A DNA stretch of 64,000 bases from an uncultured Bacillota bacterium (GTDB taxonomy: Bacteria; Bacillota; Clostridia; Christensenellales; UBA1242): contig CAMMTJ010000005.1 in the NCBI GenBank assembly GCA_946499835.1, positions 930-64,929 of the forward strand. The letters run 5' to 3'. Every line of letters begins with the position of its first letter. Positions within the stretch are counted from its first letter, which is position 1. The notes beneath the pieces were generated by a model. It was not told where the DNA came from, did no database searches, and was given only the letters and a program-made list of their open reading frames with translations. Positions 6,023 through 43,480 of the stretch are shown here, in pieces. The position numbers were made by a program, and so were the translations under genes.

Positions 6023-6149
6023 AACTTACTCCTATGTGTCATTTCTATACGCAACTCACTCTAAACACGAGAGTGTTTGAGTGAAACAGGGAATTTTCTA
6101 GCGAAAACGCAAGGCTGGTGAAAGACAGGCTTGCCTGAGCGTGAATATC

Positions 6150-6286
6150 CAATCTTCTTTGACATGCTCCAAAGCAAAGGATCACAATAAATGCGAAAGC
6201 ATTTTTGTGAAGAGGAAAATTTCAAGCGCAAGGGTCGATCTGAGGACGGCGTCCGCAAGACGACAAAAGCGCAGAAATTTTCCTAG
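6150..6286 (-). repeat. tRNA-3'-associated modular hairpin repeat, copy 1 (modules A and B)
   Basis: Starts at the tRNA-Ser CCA; long stem aggaaaatttc/gaaattttcct, then tcacaaaaatgc-n-gcatttattgtga; homologous to copies at 12.3, 41.8 and 42.65 kb. Confidence 0.8.
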
Positions 6287-6373
6287 TGGCGTAGAGAACA
6301 GGATTCGAACCTGCGGAGGGGATTCCTCACACGCTTTCCAAGCGTGCGCCTTAAACCACTCGGCCATCTCTAC
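6287..6373 (-). tRNA. tRNA-Ser(GGA)
   Basis: GTAGAGA/TCTCTAC acceptor stem, anticodon arm CACGC-TTGGAAA-GCGTG, long variable arm, GTTCGAATCC, encoded CCA. Confidence 0.96.
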
Positions 6374-8468: not shown

Positions 8469-8484
8469 TTTTGTTAAAGTTTTC

Positions 8485-8567
8485 CCATCGCGTCAGCCTT
8501 TAGCACCTTACTTTGCAAGCAGGTTGCTGTGTGGTCAAAGGGGCTGTCCCTAACACACTCTTTATGG
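8485..8567 (-). promoter_or_regulatory. SAM-I family riboswitch, compact with reduced or absent P4
   Basis: Minus strand ccatAAAGAG..AGGGACAGCCCC..GACC..CAGCAACC..AAGGTGCTAA.GGCTGA..gatgg, upstream of metK. Confidence 0.88.
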
Positions 8568-8637
8568 TCATGATTATGATAACACATTTTTTCTGCAAGC
8601 GCAACTAAAATAAGATATGTCAAAAATATTTTTGTTG

Positions 8638-11567: not shown

Positions 11568-12203
11568 TTATAAATTGTTTATTATCGATTTTACTTCGTC
11601 GAGTAGTTTGCCAATAAGCGAGCCATCAATGGCAGCATGATTGACTTGAATAGAAACGTTTACCCAGCGCTGACACTTTTCATTTATTTTCATTTTGTCA
11701 AAACTAATATGCGGAATGAAAGAGTTGCGTTGCACGTCTTGTGGATGAGTGATGTGTGAAAACTCAAACCAAGGAGTGCAAGACATATAGGCGATCACTT
11801 GACTTTTTCTTGCGCCAGAAGGCATAGGCTCAAGAAAAGTTTTTTGAGATTGCATTTTCTTTTTTGTCTCTTTGCAAAACTTTTCAATGTCTGGATAATA
11901 TTTGCTGTTGACTATTTTGAAAATATCTTCACCTTGTTTCATCACGCAAAGGTTGGCAAACTTACCATCCTCAACAACAATCTTGCCATTGATTGAGCGT
12001 ATCATAAATTCTTCAATTTTCAAAAGCGCGGTATAAAACACATGACTCAGACAGAAGTAGAAAGACAAGCCTTTCGACTCTGCAAAGTTATAAACCTTTG
12101 TCACTTCAAGTGGCGTGCAAAGTGAGATTTGAGGGATGTCAAATTGGTAGTATAAATTGAAGATATCCTTGCGTTCCCATGTTTCCAAATCAATTTCTTT
12201 CAT
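11568..12203 (-). CDS. Type A chloramphenicol acetyltransferase-like protein
   Basis: IDLETWERK, SCTPWFEFS, QVNHAAIDG catalytic motif. Confidence 0.85.
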   Translation of the reverse strand: MKEIDLETWERKDIFNLYYQFDIPQISLCTPLEVTKVYNFAESKGLSFYFCLSHVFYTALLKIEEFMIRSINGKIVVEDGKFANLCVMKQGEDIFKIVNSKYYPDIEKFCKETKKKMQSQKTFLEPMPSGARKSQVIAYMSCTPWFEFSHITHPQDVQRNSFIPHISFDKMKINEKCQRWVNVSIQVNHAAIDGSLIGKLLDEVKSIINNL

Positions 12204-12287
12204 ACGCAATTCCTTTTAATAAATCATTTATACAACAAAAACAAAAATTTTCAAAGTGTTTTGACAAGGGAAAAGGAAAAGGCAAAT

Positions 12288-12567
12288 TCAATCCGAAGGC
12301 TGACCGAAGCGCAGTCACAAAAACCGTCTTCTTTGCGTTTTCCTCATTGTTTTAAGTCGCGACCAACGCGAAGTGTAACAAGAGTTGCGTCTGGTCGCGA
12401 GAGAGGTGAAAACAAATGCACAGTCACACAAAAAAATCTTCTTTGAATCTTCTTCATTGCAAACTCACAATAAATGCGGAAGCATTTTTGTGAAGAGAGA
12501 AAAAACAAGCGCCACCGTCTTGCCGAGGACAAAGTCCGCAGGCTGACCGAAGCGCAGTTTTTTCTCT
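12288..12567 (-). repeat. tRNA-3'-associated modular hairpin repeat, copy 2 (modules A, B, C and a partial A)
   Basis: Directly after the tRNA-Leu CCA; module C (tcgcgacca...ttggtcgcga) recurs at ~42853-42945. Confidence 0.85.
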
Positions 12568-12650
<83 letters not shown>

Positions 12651-19802: not shown

Positions 19803-20020
19803 GAAGTTTATCACTTCGCTTTGTTTTTTTTGGTAGCAGCAACTGGGACCTTACCCCTATGCTCACTTCATTCGCATTGGGGACCCCGAATTTCACCCCT
19901 GTGCTCATTTTATTCGCACTGGGGACCAGTGGCACTGGTTCGCTCCCTTAAAAGTGCATAGTGCAATAAAAAAAGGAAGTTTATCACTTCGCTTTATTTT
20001 CTTGGTAGCAGCAACTGGGA
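19803..20020. repeat. Duplicated tRNA-Met 3' end plus terminator, enclosing two REP-like hairpins
   Basis: gaagtttatcacttcgcttt...tggtagcagcaactggga at 19803-19848 and 19976-20020; 33-bp repeats at 19853-19885 and 19895-19927. Confidence 0.8.
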
Positions 20021-20079
20021 TCGAACCAGTGACCTCATGAGTATGAATCATGCGCTCTAGCCAGCTGAGCTATGCTGCC
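20003..20079 (-). tRNA. tRNA-Met(CAT), probably elongator
   Basis: GGCAGCA/TGCTGCT acceptor stem, anticodon arm CATGA-TTCATAC-TCATG, encoded CCA. Confidence 0.94.
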
Positions 20080-30775: not shown

Positions 30776-31969
30776 TCATTCTCCTCTTTCTGCACTTTTT
30801 TGCAAATCTTCCAATTTAACTTCAAGTTTTTTATCGTCATTTATTTCTGTGAGTTTGTCATATTCGCTATTCACAAATTCCACAACTTCTTTTGTGATTG
30901 GAAACTTTTCCATAAGTTTAATGCTCTCAACTCCATATTTTTTTTGAAAGTTTTTTTCACCAAGAAATACATCGTCAGGCCTCATTTTATCAGTTTGGTT
31001 CATTTGAGAATATCTTGCCCAAAATTTTCTTTCGCTTGTCATGCTCCAGAATTTTTTATCAAGGAATTTTTTGTTGCCAAAAGCAACATATAAAAGCATA
31101 TATTTGAAAATAAAACCTTTGGAAGGTGTTGCCAACATTGAAGGATTTTTAATTATATCATCTTTGCTTAACTTAATCTTATCAAAAATTTCCTTCTTGT
31201 TTTTAAGCCCTTCATTAGCATAACATAAAAGAGAAGGTGAAATTTTAAGCATTTTGTTGAACTCATCTTGTGTCAAGCCAAAAGTCTCTTTATAAAATTT
31301 AGTCTTTTGTAACACACTTTCATCATTCAAATTTAGAATGGAAGGCAAAGATTTGAATATTTTGCTGAATTCATCTTGTGATAAGTCAAAAGTCTCTTTA
31401 TAAAACTTAGCCTTTTCCAAAACATTTTCACTATTGAGACCCAAAAGGGTAGGAGAGGATTTAATCATTTTGGAAATTTGGTCTTGTGTTAAGTTGAAAG
31501 TGTCTTTATAAAAGTTAACTTTTTCCAAAACATTTTTCTTTTTCAAAAATAAAAGAGAAGGTTGAGATTTTATCATTTTGTTTGCTTCTTCTCGTGTTAA
31601 GTTAAAAGTTCCTTGATAAAAGTCAATTTTTTCTTTCACGCTTTTATTTTTCAAACATAAAAGAGTAGGATAAGTTTTAATCGTTTTGTTAAATTCGCTT
31701 TGTGTTAGGCCAAAAGTTTCTTGATAAAACTTAGCCTTTTCCAAAACACTTTTATTACTATAACTTAAAATGGCAGGCAAGGTCTTAACCATTTTGATAA
31801 AGTCTCTTTGTGTTAAGTTAAATGTTGGTTTATAAAAGTCAGTTTTTTTCGAAATTTTTTCTTTTTTGAGATATAAAAGCGATGGAAGAGATGCTTCTTT
31901 CCTTTTGATATCATCATCTGTCCACTCAAAATCTTGTTTCAAAATCTCAGTAATACTTGTTATCCCCAT
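30776..31969 (-). CDS. mTERF-like tandem repeat protein, large subunit of locus 2
   Basis: Six well-conserved 36-aa repeats; mTERF-like C-terminal pattern SERKFWARY...EKNFQKKY; GGAGG RBS. Confidence 0.8.
   Translation of the reverse strand: MGITSITEILKQDFEWTDDDIKRKEASLPSLLYLKKEKISKKTDFYKPTFNLTQRDFIKMVKTLPAILSYSNKSVLEKAKFYQETFGLTQSEFNKTIKTYPTLLCLKNKSVKEKIDFYQGTFNLTREEANKMIKSQPSLLFLKKKNVLEKVNFYKDTFNLTQDQISKMIKSSPTLLGLNSENVLEKAKFYKETFDLSQDEFSKIFKSLPSILNLNDESVLQKTKFYKETFGLTQDEFNKMLKISPSLLCYANEGLKNKKEIFDKIKLSKDDIIKNPSMLATPSKGFIFKYMLLYVAFGNKKFLDKKFWSMTSERKFWARYSQMNQTDKMRPDDVFLGEKNFQKKYGVESIKLMEKFPITKEVVEFVNSEYDKLTEINDDKKLEVKLEDLQKSAERGE
31196..31843 (-). repeat. Six 108-bp coding tandem repeats
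   Basis: Consensus xxFYKxTFxLTQxEFxKMIKxxPxLLxLxxxSVLEK. Confidence 0.9.
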
Positions 31970-41713: not shown

Positions 41714-41799
41714 GCAGAAGTGGCGGAATGGCAGACGCGCAGGTTTCAGGTACCTGTGATAGCAATATCGTGTGGGTTCAACTCCCATCTTCTGCACCA
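41714..41799 (+). tRNA. tRNA-Leu(CAG)
   Basis: GCAGAAG/CTTCTGC acceptor stem, anticodon arm CAGGT-TTCAGGT-ACCTG, encoded CCA. Confidence 0.96.
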
Positions 41800-41965
41800 G
41801 AGGAAAAATTGCACTTAGGTCAGCCTGCGGACTTTGTCATCGGCAAGACGGTGGCGCTCAGTTTTCTCTTTTCACAAAAATGCTAGCGCATTTATTGTGA
41901 GTTTGCATTGAAGTTTTCGCAAAGAAGATTTTGTGTGACTGCGCAGCGGATGACATTCCGCATAG
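41800..41965 (+). repeat. tRNA-3'-associated modular hairpin repeat, copy 3 (modules A and B)
   Basis: ggtcagcctgcggactttgtc..cggcaagacggtggcgct nearly identical to the reverse complement of ~12505-12550. Confidence 0.88.
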
Positions 41966-41994
41966 GTGGTATAAATTTCATTGAGGTTAAGAAA

Positions 41995-42585
41995 ATGATT
42001 ATTGAAACTGATAGATTGATTTTAAGAGAATGGAAAATGTCTGACATTGAAGATAATGTTGAAGGATTGAATAACTTTAATGTTACAAAAAACTTAACTG
42101 TCAAGTTTCCGTATACAAAACAAGATGCAATATGCTTTATTGAAAAACATAGAAATAATGATGAAGAAAATTATTATTTTGCAATTCAATTAAAAAATGA
42201 AAACAAGGTTATTGGTGGAACTGCTATATTAGTTGATAAACACAATATGATTGGAAAGGGTGGAATTTGGATAAATGAAAAATATTTGGGAAAAGGATAT
42301 GGGACGGAGGTTTGGATAGCGAGAGCAAAGTTTGCTTTTGAAAATTTGTCTTTGAAAAAATTGCAGAATGGTTATTTCGAATTTAACGAAATCTCTTGGA
42401 AAATGCAAAAAAAAGTAGGATATAAAATTGTAGGAGAAAAAACTAATTTTAGCAAAGCCCTTAATCAAAAAGTTAAAGAGATTGTAACAGAATTGACAAA
42501 AAGTGAATTTAATAAAGCATTAGAAAAAAACTTTAAACAAATAAATTTTACATTTAAAGTTTTAGAAGATAACAAGTATTCGTGA
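41995..42585 (+). CDS. GNAT acetyltransferase (RimJ/RimL-like), AT-rich
   Basis: IETDRLILREW, YLGKGYGTE, NEISWKMQKKVGY. Confidence 0.88.
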   Translation: MIIETDRLILREWKMSDIEDNVEGLNNFNVTKNLTVKFPYTKQDAICFIEKHRNNDEENYYFAIQLKNENKVIGGTAILVDKHNMIGKGGIWINEKYLGKGYGTEVWIARAKFAFENLSLKKLQNGYFEFNEISWKMQKKVGYKIVGEKTNFSKALNQKVKEIVTELTKSEFNKALEKNFKQINFTFKVLEDNKYS

Positions 42586-42653
42586 TCAATTATGTAATGT
42601 CGCGAAATCAATGTTGAGAAATCAAAAAATCGACTTTGTTGTTAGTCGACACA

Positions 42654-42950
42654 AGAGAAAAAACTGCGCTTCTGCCTAGGCTCTATTCGAGCCGTTACGG
42701 CGGTGGCGCTCAGTTTTCTCTTTTCAAAATATGCTATCGCATTTATTGTGATTTTGCAGTGAAGCCCTCGCAAAGAAGATTTTGTGTGACTGCATAGAGG
42801 ATGACATACTGCCATGGTGCTTTTTTTTTGAAAAAGCAAAAACTACGCACTGACATTTGTTTTCGCCTCTCGCGACCAAACGCAACTCTCCTTACACTTC
42901 GAGTTGGTCGCGACTTGAAGCAATGAGGCAAATGCAAAGAAGATTGTTTT
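42654..42950 (+). repeat. Modular hairpin repeat, copy 4 (modules A', B and C) downstream of the GNAT gene
   Basis: agagaaaaaactgcgct...ggtggcgctcagttttctc, gcatttattgtga, tcgcgacca...ttggtcgcga. Confidence 0.88.
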
Positions 42951-43084
42951 TACAACAAACAAGTAATTAGAATTAAAGAATATTTTTATAAAGATGAGAC
43001 AAAAAGAGGAGTCTTTTCCAACACTTCTCTTTTTTTGTTTTAATAATCTATATTGTTATGATATAATTTTTGAAAGGAGGGGGT

Positions 43085-43480
43085 ATGGTTTTTCAGGCGA
43101 AGAAAAAAGATTTGGCGGTTGTTTGTGATCTTGCCGTTAAGATTTGGGGCGGAGATGAGAAGATGATGGAAAAAGAATTTGCTCCACGCCTTGCAAACAA
43201 CAAAATTGGAGTTCTTGTGGCCAAGGTTGAAAATGTGCCAGCAGGATTTATTGAATGTGCGCTGAGAGAGGATGGTGGCAAGGTGACAGGCAATTTGGAA
43301 GGAGTCTATGTTCTGCCAGAATTTCGCGGAAGAGGAGTTGCGCGAGACTTGTTTGATGAGGCTGTCAAGTTTGTAAAGAAAAAAGGTGCAGTAGATGTGG
43401 AAAGCGGATGTCCTTATTGCAAAAAGCAACTTCTTTTGTTAAATGAAAAGGGAAAAAGTGAGCAGAATAAAAGAAAATAG
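43085..43480 (+). CDS. GNAT acetyltransferase, AAC(6')-like, possibly truncated at the C-terminus
   Basis: GFIECALR, LEGVYVLPEFRGRGVA. Confidence 0.75.
   Translation: MVFQAKKKDLAVVCDLAVKIWGGDEKMMEKEFAPRLANNKIGVLVAKVENVPAGFIECALREDGGKVTGNLEGVYVLPEFRGRGVARDLFDEAVKFVKKKGAVDVESGCPYCKKQLLLLNEKGKSEQNKRK

Follow-up and report, generated by a model that had tools for sequence, protein, structure and literature searches.

One locus in a 64,000-nucleotide stretch of DNA from an uncultured Bacillota bacterium of the UBA1242 lineage (GenBank assembly GCA_946499835.1, contig CAMMTJ010000005.1, positions 930 to 64,929; the whole stretch is called the window here, and its contig C5) raises the question of how a single gene came to lie between two sets of hairpin-forming repeats directly behind a tRNA gene. 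In this locus the gene for tRNA-Leu(CAG) is followed by the repeat modules A and B, an AT-rich gene for an acetyltransferase of the GNAT family (GNAT1), the modules A', B and C, and a second GNAT gene (GNAT2). At tRNA-Leu(TAG) the modules A, B and C are contiguous. Both arrangements had been described in a first-pass annotation and were confirmed with ARAGORN, Pfam and a repeat finder. The annotation had concluded that a gene-plus-repeat unit was inserted behind the tRNA, in the manner of an integron-like array or of a capture array mediated by repetitive extragenic palindromic (REP) elements. Based on the comparisons reported here, we consider it rather probable that GNAT1 belongs to a worn member of a genus-wide family of recombinase-less, one-gene cassettes, which occupy a tRNA-anchored insertion site and end in a conserved element that we designate R.

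The assembly comprises 0.996 Mb in 16 contigs, is 99% complete and contains 37 tRNA genes, four of which were located in the window by ARAGORN. It was compared with the other 153 genomes of a genus set (154 genomes including this one; genomes are labelled G### and extracted loci L###) and with 242 genomes sampled from the same order outside the genus. All genomes compared are metagenome assemblies, and our findings are read from sequence alone.

The anchor of the locus is tRNA-Leu(CAG) (41714-41799, plus strand; Rfam tRNA model, 52.3 bits), the CCA end of which is encoded. The GNAT1 unit (41962-42653, plus strand) consists of an extended -10-like sequence of its own (TGgTATAAA, 41967-41975), a ribosome-binding site, an open reading frame (ORF) of 196 codons (41995-42585; Pfam Acetyltransf_3, E 1.7e-16) and a remnant of R at its 3' end. 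The GC content of GNAT1 is 26.4% as compared to 37.1% for the window, which makes the gene a strong compositional outlier. The GNAT1 protein is 100% identical in G058, which represents another species of the genus, and the DNA block from 41962 to 42668 is 98.6% identical over 707 nt to that genome (L026 1468-2173), against a background of 68-80% identity for the other aligned genes of the two genomes. The common block starts with ATAGGTGGTATAA, which includes the -10-like sequence, and ends with ..GTCGACACA; the flanks on both sides are unalignable. In G058 the block is located behind tRNA-Leu(TAA), it is preceded by a leader of about 210 nt of a type that we designate L, and the DNA on its 3' side is a 91%-identical copy of the trailer of that same tRNA-Leu(TAA). 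A search for relatives of GNAT1 returned one locus from the genome_contigs collection, namely the G058 contig, and none from the metagenome_contigs collection. The last 56-67 nt of the GNAT1 unit match R (87.5% over 56 nt to R of G014, by blastn), and copies of the last ~56 nt of the 3' untranslated region of GNAT1 with 84-89% identity were found in at least 10 other species. An nhmmer profile of 158 positions, based on 19 R copies, delimited the remnant to the 67 nt from 42587 to 42653 on the plus strand, corresponding to profile positions 90-156 of 158; it retains one iteron (GTCGCGAAATCAA) and the end GACTTTGTTGTTAGTCGACACA. The fold predicted for the 3' untranslated region of GNAT1 is no more stable than those of shuffled sequences (z -0.12).

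In its complete form, R is a 158-nt element with three TCGCRAAATCAAA iterons, palindromes of the sequences TTTTGATT and AATCAAAA, and an end that reads ..GACTTYGTTGTYAGTTGACACA, ..GTTGACACA or AAAAAAGACTTYGTTGTYAGTTGACACA. The leader L starts with A(A/C)TATAY..ATAAAAAGTCTTTTT, and its positions 172-254 represent an inverted copy of the start of R with 78% identity. A full cassette consists of L, one or two ORFs and R, measures 0.5-2.2 kb, and occurs in arrays of one to three cassettes. The cassettes are arranged head to tail, the first one starting from the base after the tRNA CCA and each next one from the base after the previous R. For example, the array of G014 reads tRNA-Arg(TCG), L-Peptidase_S51-R, L-two ORFs-R and a further L, whereas that of G001 consists of tRNA-Gly(CCC) and a single cassette with a short L, a cupin gene and R. 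The cassette ORFs encode GNAT, Peptidase_S51, cupin or transglutaminase-like proteins, or proteins without a Pfam family; none encodes an integrase. When R plus the first 36 nt of L was used as a blastn query, at least 40 of the 154 genus genomes gave a match (this one included, hence at least 39 of the 153 others; these genome counts are lower bounds, five candidates having been scored per genome), while the 242 genomes sampled from the order outside the genus gave none. Conservation of R resides in its sequence and not in its structure, as 0 of 30 predicted base pairs covary among the 19 copies. In one further genome (G002, L102 11530-14124), an IS21 element (istA/istB) has inserted in an R element, thereby truncating R.

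A tRNA gene on the same strand was found within 1.5 kb upstream at 15 of 30 loci centred on R hits, where a rough estimate from ~40 tRNA genes per 1-Mb genome gives a chance of about 3% per locus. Eight tRNA types are involved: Arg-TCG, Gly-CCC, Leu-TAG, Leu-TAA, Leu-CAG, Thr-CGT, Thr-GGT and Lys-TTT. By a strict pattern, the start of L follows 10 of 29 distinct R ends. Inspected by eye, several of the other R ends precede terminators composed of an A-run, a hairpin and a T-run, like those found directly 3' of tRNAs in this genome. Terminator-type sequence 3' of the last R is consistent with an insertion between the CCA and the terminator that belongs to the tRNA. We also considered whether the cassette end might derive from a tRNA 3' end by decay; this was rejected, since one and the same end sequence is found behind eight tRNA types. 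At the present locus, the last 45 nt of tRNA-Leu(CAG) have no 12-mer in common with the 40 kb downstream.

That these units move is indicated by cassettes that are shared between species. The first cassette of the G014 array is 95.0% identical over 1096 nt in G124, and the identity takes in the final 6 nt of the tRNA and extends 14 nt beyond R; the anchor is tRNA-Arg(TCG) in G014 and tRNA-Leu(TAA) in G124. The second cassette of G014 has a counterpart in G159 with 98.7% identity over 2075 nt, the identity beginning at the junction; in G014 the cassette takes the second position behind tRNA-Arg(TCG), after ..GTTGACACA|AATATATGG, and in G159 the first position behind tRNA-Thr(CGT), after ..CAGCTCCA|AATATACTA. 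The chromosomal DNA beside the G014 array is only 67-76% identical in G124 and G159. Together with GNAT1, three cassettes are thus 95-99% identical between species with a background of 67-80%, and each is located behind different tRNAs. As judged from these identities, three recent cross-species transfers are shown, each of them bounded at a cassette junction. That there are three independent cases argues against chimeric assembly joins as their source. With respect to GNAT1, the claim that a unit was inserted held insofar as a discrete gene unit that is mobile between species was inserted at a tRNA 3' end, and the notion of an array anchored to a tRNA likewise proved apt for the family, which builds short tandem cassette arrays at tRNA genes. 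One part that did not hold is the role assigned to the repeats, as the cassette end is R and the modules A, B and C are not the recombination sites.

A comparison of relatives had been proposed in the first-pass annotation, and gene content behind this tRNA proved to be variable and not invariant. The DNA 3' of tRNA-Leu(CAG) differs in nearly all of the 31 species examined, and a GNAT1-like gene is present behind it in two of them, G057 (57% amino acid identity, directly after the CCA) and G011 (28%). The DUF2207 gene located upstream in our genome is found in 16 relatives; tRNA-Leu(CAG) adjoins it in G017 alone, followed there by a plain terminator and mnmG. The G057 locus (L031 1390-2620) has peculiarities of its own. 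The GNAT1 homologue begins 25 nt past the CCA of tRNA-Leu(CAG), its last ~75 nt are duplicated ~190 nt downstream around a small insert, and a Cas9-like ORF starts from about position 2548.

What, then, are the modules A, B and C? At the tRNA-Leu(CAG) locus, copy A1 of module A forms a long hairpin from the first base 3' of the CCA (41800-41872, plus strand). It is followed by the first copy of module B (41872-41944, plus strand), which comprises a hairpin CACAAAAATGC..GCATTTATTGTG and a tail ending in GTGTGACTGCGC (direct repeat D5, 84%; fold z -2.33), and by the small hairpin A5 (GCGGATGACATTCCGC; 41940-41961, plus strand), which is also found 3' of tRNA-Leu(TAA) on contig C9. Behind the GNAT1 unit we find, all on the plus strand, copy A2 of module A (A'; 42654-42724; fold -34.5 kcal/mol, z -5.05), the second copy of module B (42725-42794; repeat D5) with a hairpin A5' after it (42725-42819 for B plus A5'), and module C (42823-42953), which consists of a hairpin TCGCGACCAAAC..GTTGGTCGCGA with a tail and is 88% identical to the copy at tRNA-Leu(TAG) (repeat pair I1) and 96% identical to the copy at tRNA-Leu(CAA) on C9. 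The comparison locus on the minus strand (12285-12650, with tRNA-Leu(TAG) at 12568-12650; ARAGORN and repeat finder) carries the contiguous A-B-C and the start of another A; its modules are 88% (A), 86% (B) and 88% (C) identical to those at tRNA-Leu(CAG). The echo of this other tRNA/repeat junction that had been noted at the start of the second repeat is real (repeat pair I10). The modules recur as had been described, with the qualification that A and A' match in the outer stem alone, A2 having the outer stem of A1 and an inner hairpin of unrelated sequence. A third A-B copy in the window, beyond the two loci previously noted, lies behind tRNA-Ser(GGA) on the minus strand (6140-6373; A-B at 6140-6286; fold of A with z -6.48 and 11 of 11 outer pairs).

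In the whole genome, blastn located module copies at nine places. Seven of these are within 200 nt behind a same-strand tRNA gene (Ser-GGA, Leu-TAG, Leu-CAG, Gly-CCC, Arg-ACG, Glu-CTC and Leu-CAA); of the remaining two, one follows the GNAT1 unit and the other lies at a contig end, so that seven of eight assessable places are linked to a tRNA where 0.0046 per place is expected by chance. The repeat copies are therefore tied to tRNA genes and not scattered. Module A starts 0-3 nt past the CCA. Its outer stem occurs in three versions, AGAGAAAAAAC/GTTTTTTCTCT, AGGAAAATTTC/GAAATTTTCCT and ATGAAAATTTC/GAAATTTTCAT, with 11 of 11 pairs kept in each; the compensated AGGAAAATTTC/GAAATTTTCCT stem is that of the copy at tRNA-Ser(GGA). 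Three of four A copies fold far more stably than shuffled sequences (z -4.3 to -6.5), the fourth being A1 (z -0.77), in which the outer stem is degraded. The inner part of A is represented by at least five unrelated sequences of one architecture, each with an extra hairpin of 35-40 nt in place of a loop. Module A also has an A-tract, a GC clamp and, 3' of its stem, a T-run, and a simple scan found five terminator-like sites where 0.8 were expected, among them 41835-41856 and 42691-42708. Behind other tRNA genes in our assembly, plain hairpin terminators occupy the position of A. In G003 an A stem with a 4-nt loop is found behind tRNA-Met. Behind the tRNA-Leu(CAG) of G008, which is 97% identical to ours, an A-like module and then a C-like one come without an intervening gene.

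A first search over 40 relatives with an A1-B query had matched only one of them, which would have made the modules species-specific; this was overturned when the window segment 41800-44100 was used as a wider blastn query against the genus. Copies of the A2 and C types were then found in many species, with matches to C in over 15 further species of the genus and A2-type copies behind tRNAs in other species. No Rfam family matches the modules at the gathering score or at E<=1, and an exact module-B pattern had no match in the genome_contigs collection. In one sequencing run (X15), a contig has an A1-type inner hairpin in place of A2 on the 3' side of GNAT1 (joint 42668>41814), which indicates that module copies are exchanged between strains. 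We interpret A as a terminator or trailer hairpin of tRNA genes in extended form, and B and C as further common hairpins. We propose that A may be kept by selection on pairing, and that its copies may be homogenised among tRNA loci by gene conversion. Structured repeats beside a gene need not be the recombination sites of that gene.

These observations can be combined into a model for the locus. A unit composed of A1, B, A5, GNAT1 and R would have been inserted between the CCA of tRNA-Leu(CAG) and an old trailer made up of A2, B and C. An insertion ahead of the old trailer would leave GNAT1 between two repeat sets, whereas tRNA-Leu(TAG) has a single contiguous set. The original terminator or trailer of the tRNA would then have been displaced to behind the last R, with A2 as the start of the displaced trailer. 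More generally, a circular cassette with an R-L junction ..ACA|AATATA.. may recombine with CCA|A.. of a tRNA or with the end of a resident R. The iterons flank this junction in opposite orientation, which suggests protein-binding arms like those carried by attP sites of the lambda type. Catalysis would be provided in trans by a tyrosine recombinase that is encoded elsewhere.

Tyrosine recombinases (PF00589) were matched on contigs C1, C3, C6 and C14 of this genome and, in the search of the whole assembly, not on C5, in agreement with the earlier statement that the window lacks a recombinase gene. The whole assembly also lacks matches to resolvases and to the HUH transposase Y1 (PF01797; 0 matches, where a control search matched 6 of 14 reference genomes). 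An HUH/RAYT nuclease (RAYT, REP-associated tyrosine transposase), which the first-pass annotation had suggested looking for, is therefore missing from this assembly, and REP-mediated capture is not supported. Among five R-rich genomes, tyrosine recombinases are present in all five, RVT_1 in two and rve in three (two above the curated cut-off), which makes tyrosine recombinases the sole tested enzyme class found in all five. Priming of a reverse transcriptase on the tRNA CCA was also considered and was rejected, as reverse transcriptase genes occur in just two of the five. In G014 the nearest integrase is about 15 kb from an array, and G056, G077, G165 and G159 have, by contig and position, no integrase beside a listed R match. 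Whether the R-L junction might be dif-like was followed up by a palindrome scan near two Xer-like genes, which gave nothing usable. Beyond the cassette family itself, we tentatively raise the possibility that these gut Clostridia have a second, independently evolved capture platform, in which integrase-less cassettes would be defined by their iteron-bearing R-L junction. A dedicated recombinase would insert them exactly at the 3' terminus of nearly any tRNA gene by recognising the tRNA end and not a long identical core.

Of the explanations that dispense with such a family at this locus, homologous recombination between dispersed A-B trailer repeats, without any dedicated site-specific system, needs to be weighed because the copies have 72-92% identity at no fewer than six loci, and the X15 contig documents the exchange of inner hairpins among copies between strains. 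A circle or fragment with GNAT1 and A-B would have crossed into the A-B trailer of tRNA-Leu(CAG) in a Campbell-type event. However, the flanks of the GNAT1 unit in G058 have no A-B homology, and the two other shared cassettes, for which the tRNAs are unrelated, have their boundaries at CCA| and at the end of R. Moreover, the two repeat sets at our locus differ by 16% in B (84% identity over 93 nt) and have unrelated A inner hairpins, which argues that they are no recent duplication; we thus regard this explanation as unlikely. GNAT1 could instead be an old vertical neighbour of tRNA-Leu(CAG), with the trailer modules having spread later (for example, as small elements landing behind CCA-like ends) and the G058 copy representing a one-off transfer. 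The homologue close behind the same tRNA in G057 would suit this history, and so would the graded relatives of GNAT1 (79%, 70%, 66% and below) in uncultured Clostridia. Yet G080, G140, G112 and G008, the four species in which tRNA-Leu(CAG) is most similar (97%), have no such gene behind it, and GNAT1 deviates strongly in composition and carries the R remnant. In G058 and G078, moreover, homologues stand behind different tRNAs or behind remnants of tRNAs, which fits repeated insertion better; vertical descent appears improbable to us.

The other two alternatives would assign the cassettes to known classes of mobile DNA. Homing to sites downstream of tRNA genes occurs in some Tn7-like and CRISPR-associated transposons, and the cassettes might be non-autonomous DDE transposons of the Tn7/Mu type, directed to tRNA genes by a transposase acting in trans and ending in transposase-binding repeats. 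Their ends in ..CA-3' and the placement of the ORF between inverted clusters of one iteron would be expected for such elements, but the single-cassette locus of G001 shows no target-site duplication, insertion takes place at zero distance from the CCA and not at a fixed offset, and the tRNA-adjoining part of L moves with the cassette. The presence of rve in just three of the five R-rich genomes also counts against this reading, and the rve gene of G002, which is not one of those five genomes, belongs to IS21. We hold this explanation to be very improbable. A true integron, or an array of the CALIN type (cluster of attC sites lacking integron-integrases), with the A hairpins as attC sites, comes to mind because A, a long and imperfect hairpin, combines a conserved outer stem with a variable inside and compensatory changes, and because the neighbouring genes encode small acetyltransferases, which are typical cassette cargo. 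Nonetheless, there is no integrase in the window or beside the arrays, A copies stand behind tRNAs with or without a following gene, and the cross-species identity of the GNAT1 unit ends before A. A is followed by a T-run like that of an intrinsic terminator and has a counterpart with a 4-nt loop in a relative, while in R, the real cassette end, conservation concerns the sequence and not the structure. With neither an adjacent IntI nor a site of the attC type (0 of 30 R pairs covary), a true integron can hardly be correct.

Several observations weigh against the view that we favour, in which GNAT1 is a worn cassette at a tRNA-anchored insertion site. A recombinase has not been linked to the cassettes: none is adjacent to an array in the five genomes checked, and a co-occurrence test was not made. 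Half of the R loci (15 of 30) have no tRNA within 1.5 kb, although some of these are at contig ends or deeper in arrays. The genome of the window has a single, truncated R copy and no copy of L, so the local cassette may be immobile now. The unit that is common with G058 does not include a leader, as A1-B-A5 precedes it here and an L-type leader precedes it there. This mismatch implies that one leader was replaced, which calls for an additional event of recombination or conversion; the replacement would have occurred in either this genome or G058, and either direction of transfer is possible. With respect to the modules, a tRNA is present within about 450 nt upstream at 8 of 18 A2/C loci of other species, and C is often not adjacent to a tRNA. 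Chimeric joins are not wholly excludable, all genomes being metagenome assemblies. Finally, neither a circular form, as the first-pass annotation had suggested looking for, nor an empty site was seen in four runs from four studies, in all four of which GNAT1 was present; this check covered assembled contigs, in which rare forms are invisible. This DNA was found in 19 sequencing runs altogether, none of which is registered as RNA. Joints in the four runs that skipped GNAT1 or led back were all explained by other repeat copies, such as the contiguous A-B-C at tRNA-Leu(TAG) and a B-to-A2 join behind tRNA-Gly(CCC).

In comparison with known systems, the cassettes are integron-like in logic, and they are neither integrons nor REP/RAYT elements. 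As in integrons, short one-gene units without a recombinase of their own are lined up head to tail in one orientation at a fixed anchor, a given cassette is found at different anchors and positions across genomes, and the cargo consists of small accessory enzymes. In contrast to integrons, the anchors are the 3' ends of ordinary tRNA genes, several kinds of which are used per genome, instead of an attI site beside intI, and the R-L arrays have no adjacent integrase. Furthermore, R is an iteron-rich element of ~158 nt with a conserved sequence and not a structure-defined attC with a GTTRRRY core, and the R-L cassettes have a long leader, in some cases with a promoter of their own, and were seen in arrays of only one to three. 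Insertion at a tRNA 3' end with newer insertions pushing older ones outward, integrase-less forms that could move in trans, and a small, streamlined host genome are features shared with tRNA-targeting islands, tycheposons and CIMEs, the latter being cis-mobilisable elements, that is, integrase-less derivatives of tRNA-targeting integrative elements. The cassettes are set apart from tRNA-targeting elements by the junction exactly at the CCA, by the use of many tRNAs by one cassette type, and by their size of 0.5-2.2 kb with one or two genes. Tycheposons have integrases of their own and partial tRNA copies on their flanks (bioRxiv 10.1101/2020.12.28.424599). Our cassettes differ from them in having no integrase and in having R, and no tRNA copy, at the distal end.

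The modules A, B and C have parallels of their own. They resemble REP sequences and bacterial interspersed mosaic elements (BIMEs) in being hairpin-forming extragenic repeats that occur as mosaics in varying combinations, but they differ from REP/RAYT systems by the lack of a RAYT/Y1 gene, by the restriction of A copies to the 3' flanks of tRNA genes and by the appearance of these copies as extended terminators. The position of A at 0-3 nt past the CCA and its GC-containing stem with a T-run are those of intrinsic tRNA terminators, whereas the extra hairpin in the loop of A and the further common hairpins B and C that follow are not found in plain terminators.

A full-text literature search, judged on its search results alone, returned no published description of such cassettes. 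If our reading is correct, bacteria whose genomes measure 1 Mb and contain few mobile elements of the classical kind exchange individual genes by means of cassettes that are unrelated to integrons in their parts, which would explain the high variability of the DNA behind tRNA genes in this group. The exact CCA junction without a copied tRNA segment would then represent a new kind of target for site-specific recombination. If the more tentative notion of a dedicated capture platform should be true as well, every tRNA gene would be a potential attI, and species would swap genes at single-gene resolution. The R-L junction with its TCGCRAAATCAAA iterons provides a concrete handle for finding the enzyme.

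Other genes near the modules were also inspected. GNAT2 (43085-43480, plus strand) encodes a small GNAT acetyltransferase of 131 codons (Pfam Acetyltransf_1, E 1.3e-11); it has no R element behind it, and a DNA search of the other 153 genus genomes gave no match at E<=1e-8. A CAT-like gene (11568-12203, minus-strand locus; Pfam CAT, E 9.2e-20) lies 3' of the modules at tRNA-Leu(TAG), and two GNATs, a kinase-like protein and a NUDIX protein are encoded 3' of tRNA-Leu(CAA) (C9:15100-17450). Small acetyltransferases thus predominate directly 3' of module-bearing tRNA-Leu genes. The curated NCBIfam cut-offs of named resistance families are far above the scores of GNAT1, GNAT2 and the CAT-like protein, and the genes at the tRNA-Leu(CAA) locus are also below these cut-offs.

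The genome contains further insertions at tRNA genes. Ten tRNA genes out of 37 have their own 3' end duplicated at most 215 nt downstream, where the copy bounds a small insert, for example at 19831-20079 (minus strand) in the window and on contigs C2, C4, C9, C13 and C16. At the loci that were read, these inserts measure 170-215 nt and contain a terminator, an inverted copy of part of the variable loop and T-stem of the tRNA, and a hairpin CCC(Y)GAAAA..AGATTTTT(R)GGG. This hairpin is nearly identical in G058, G056 and G109, and in G058 and G017 there are versions on the 5' side that duplicate the 5' end of the tRNA. In G017, the DNA just upstream of tRNA-Leu(CAG) (L017 2490-2590) falls within a region in which the 5' part of this tRNA is duplicated. 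These inserts constitute a different family from the R-L cassettes. A partial tRNA-Leu at C9:27-108, located behind an intact tRNA-Leu(TAA), combines a TAA anticodon region with the acceptor 3' strand and the trailer of tRNA-Leu(CAA); it looks like a recombination product of two tRNA-Leu paralogues, the positions of which are swapped in G058.

Elsewhere in the window, a riboswitch for S-adenosylmethionine (SAM; 8482-8570, minus strand) was identified with Rfam (RF00162, 50.3 bits, above the gathering score). The segment 29199-29319 contains at least six direct repeats of ATGTGGATAAC(T), which we take to be DnaA-box-like; the replication origin is probably located there. Six tandem units of 108 nt with 62-73% identity occupy positions 31114-31953 and presumably form a repeat domain within a gene.

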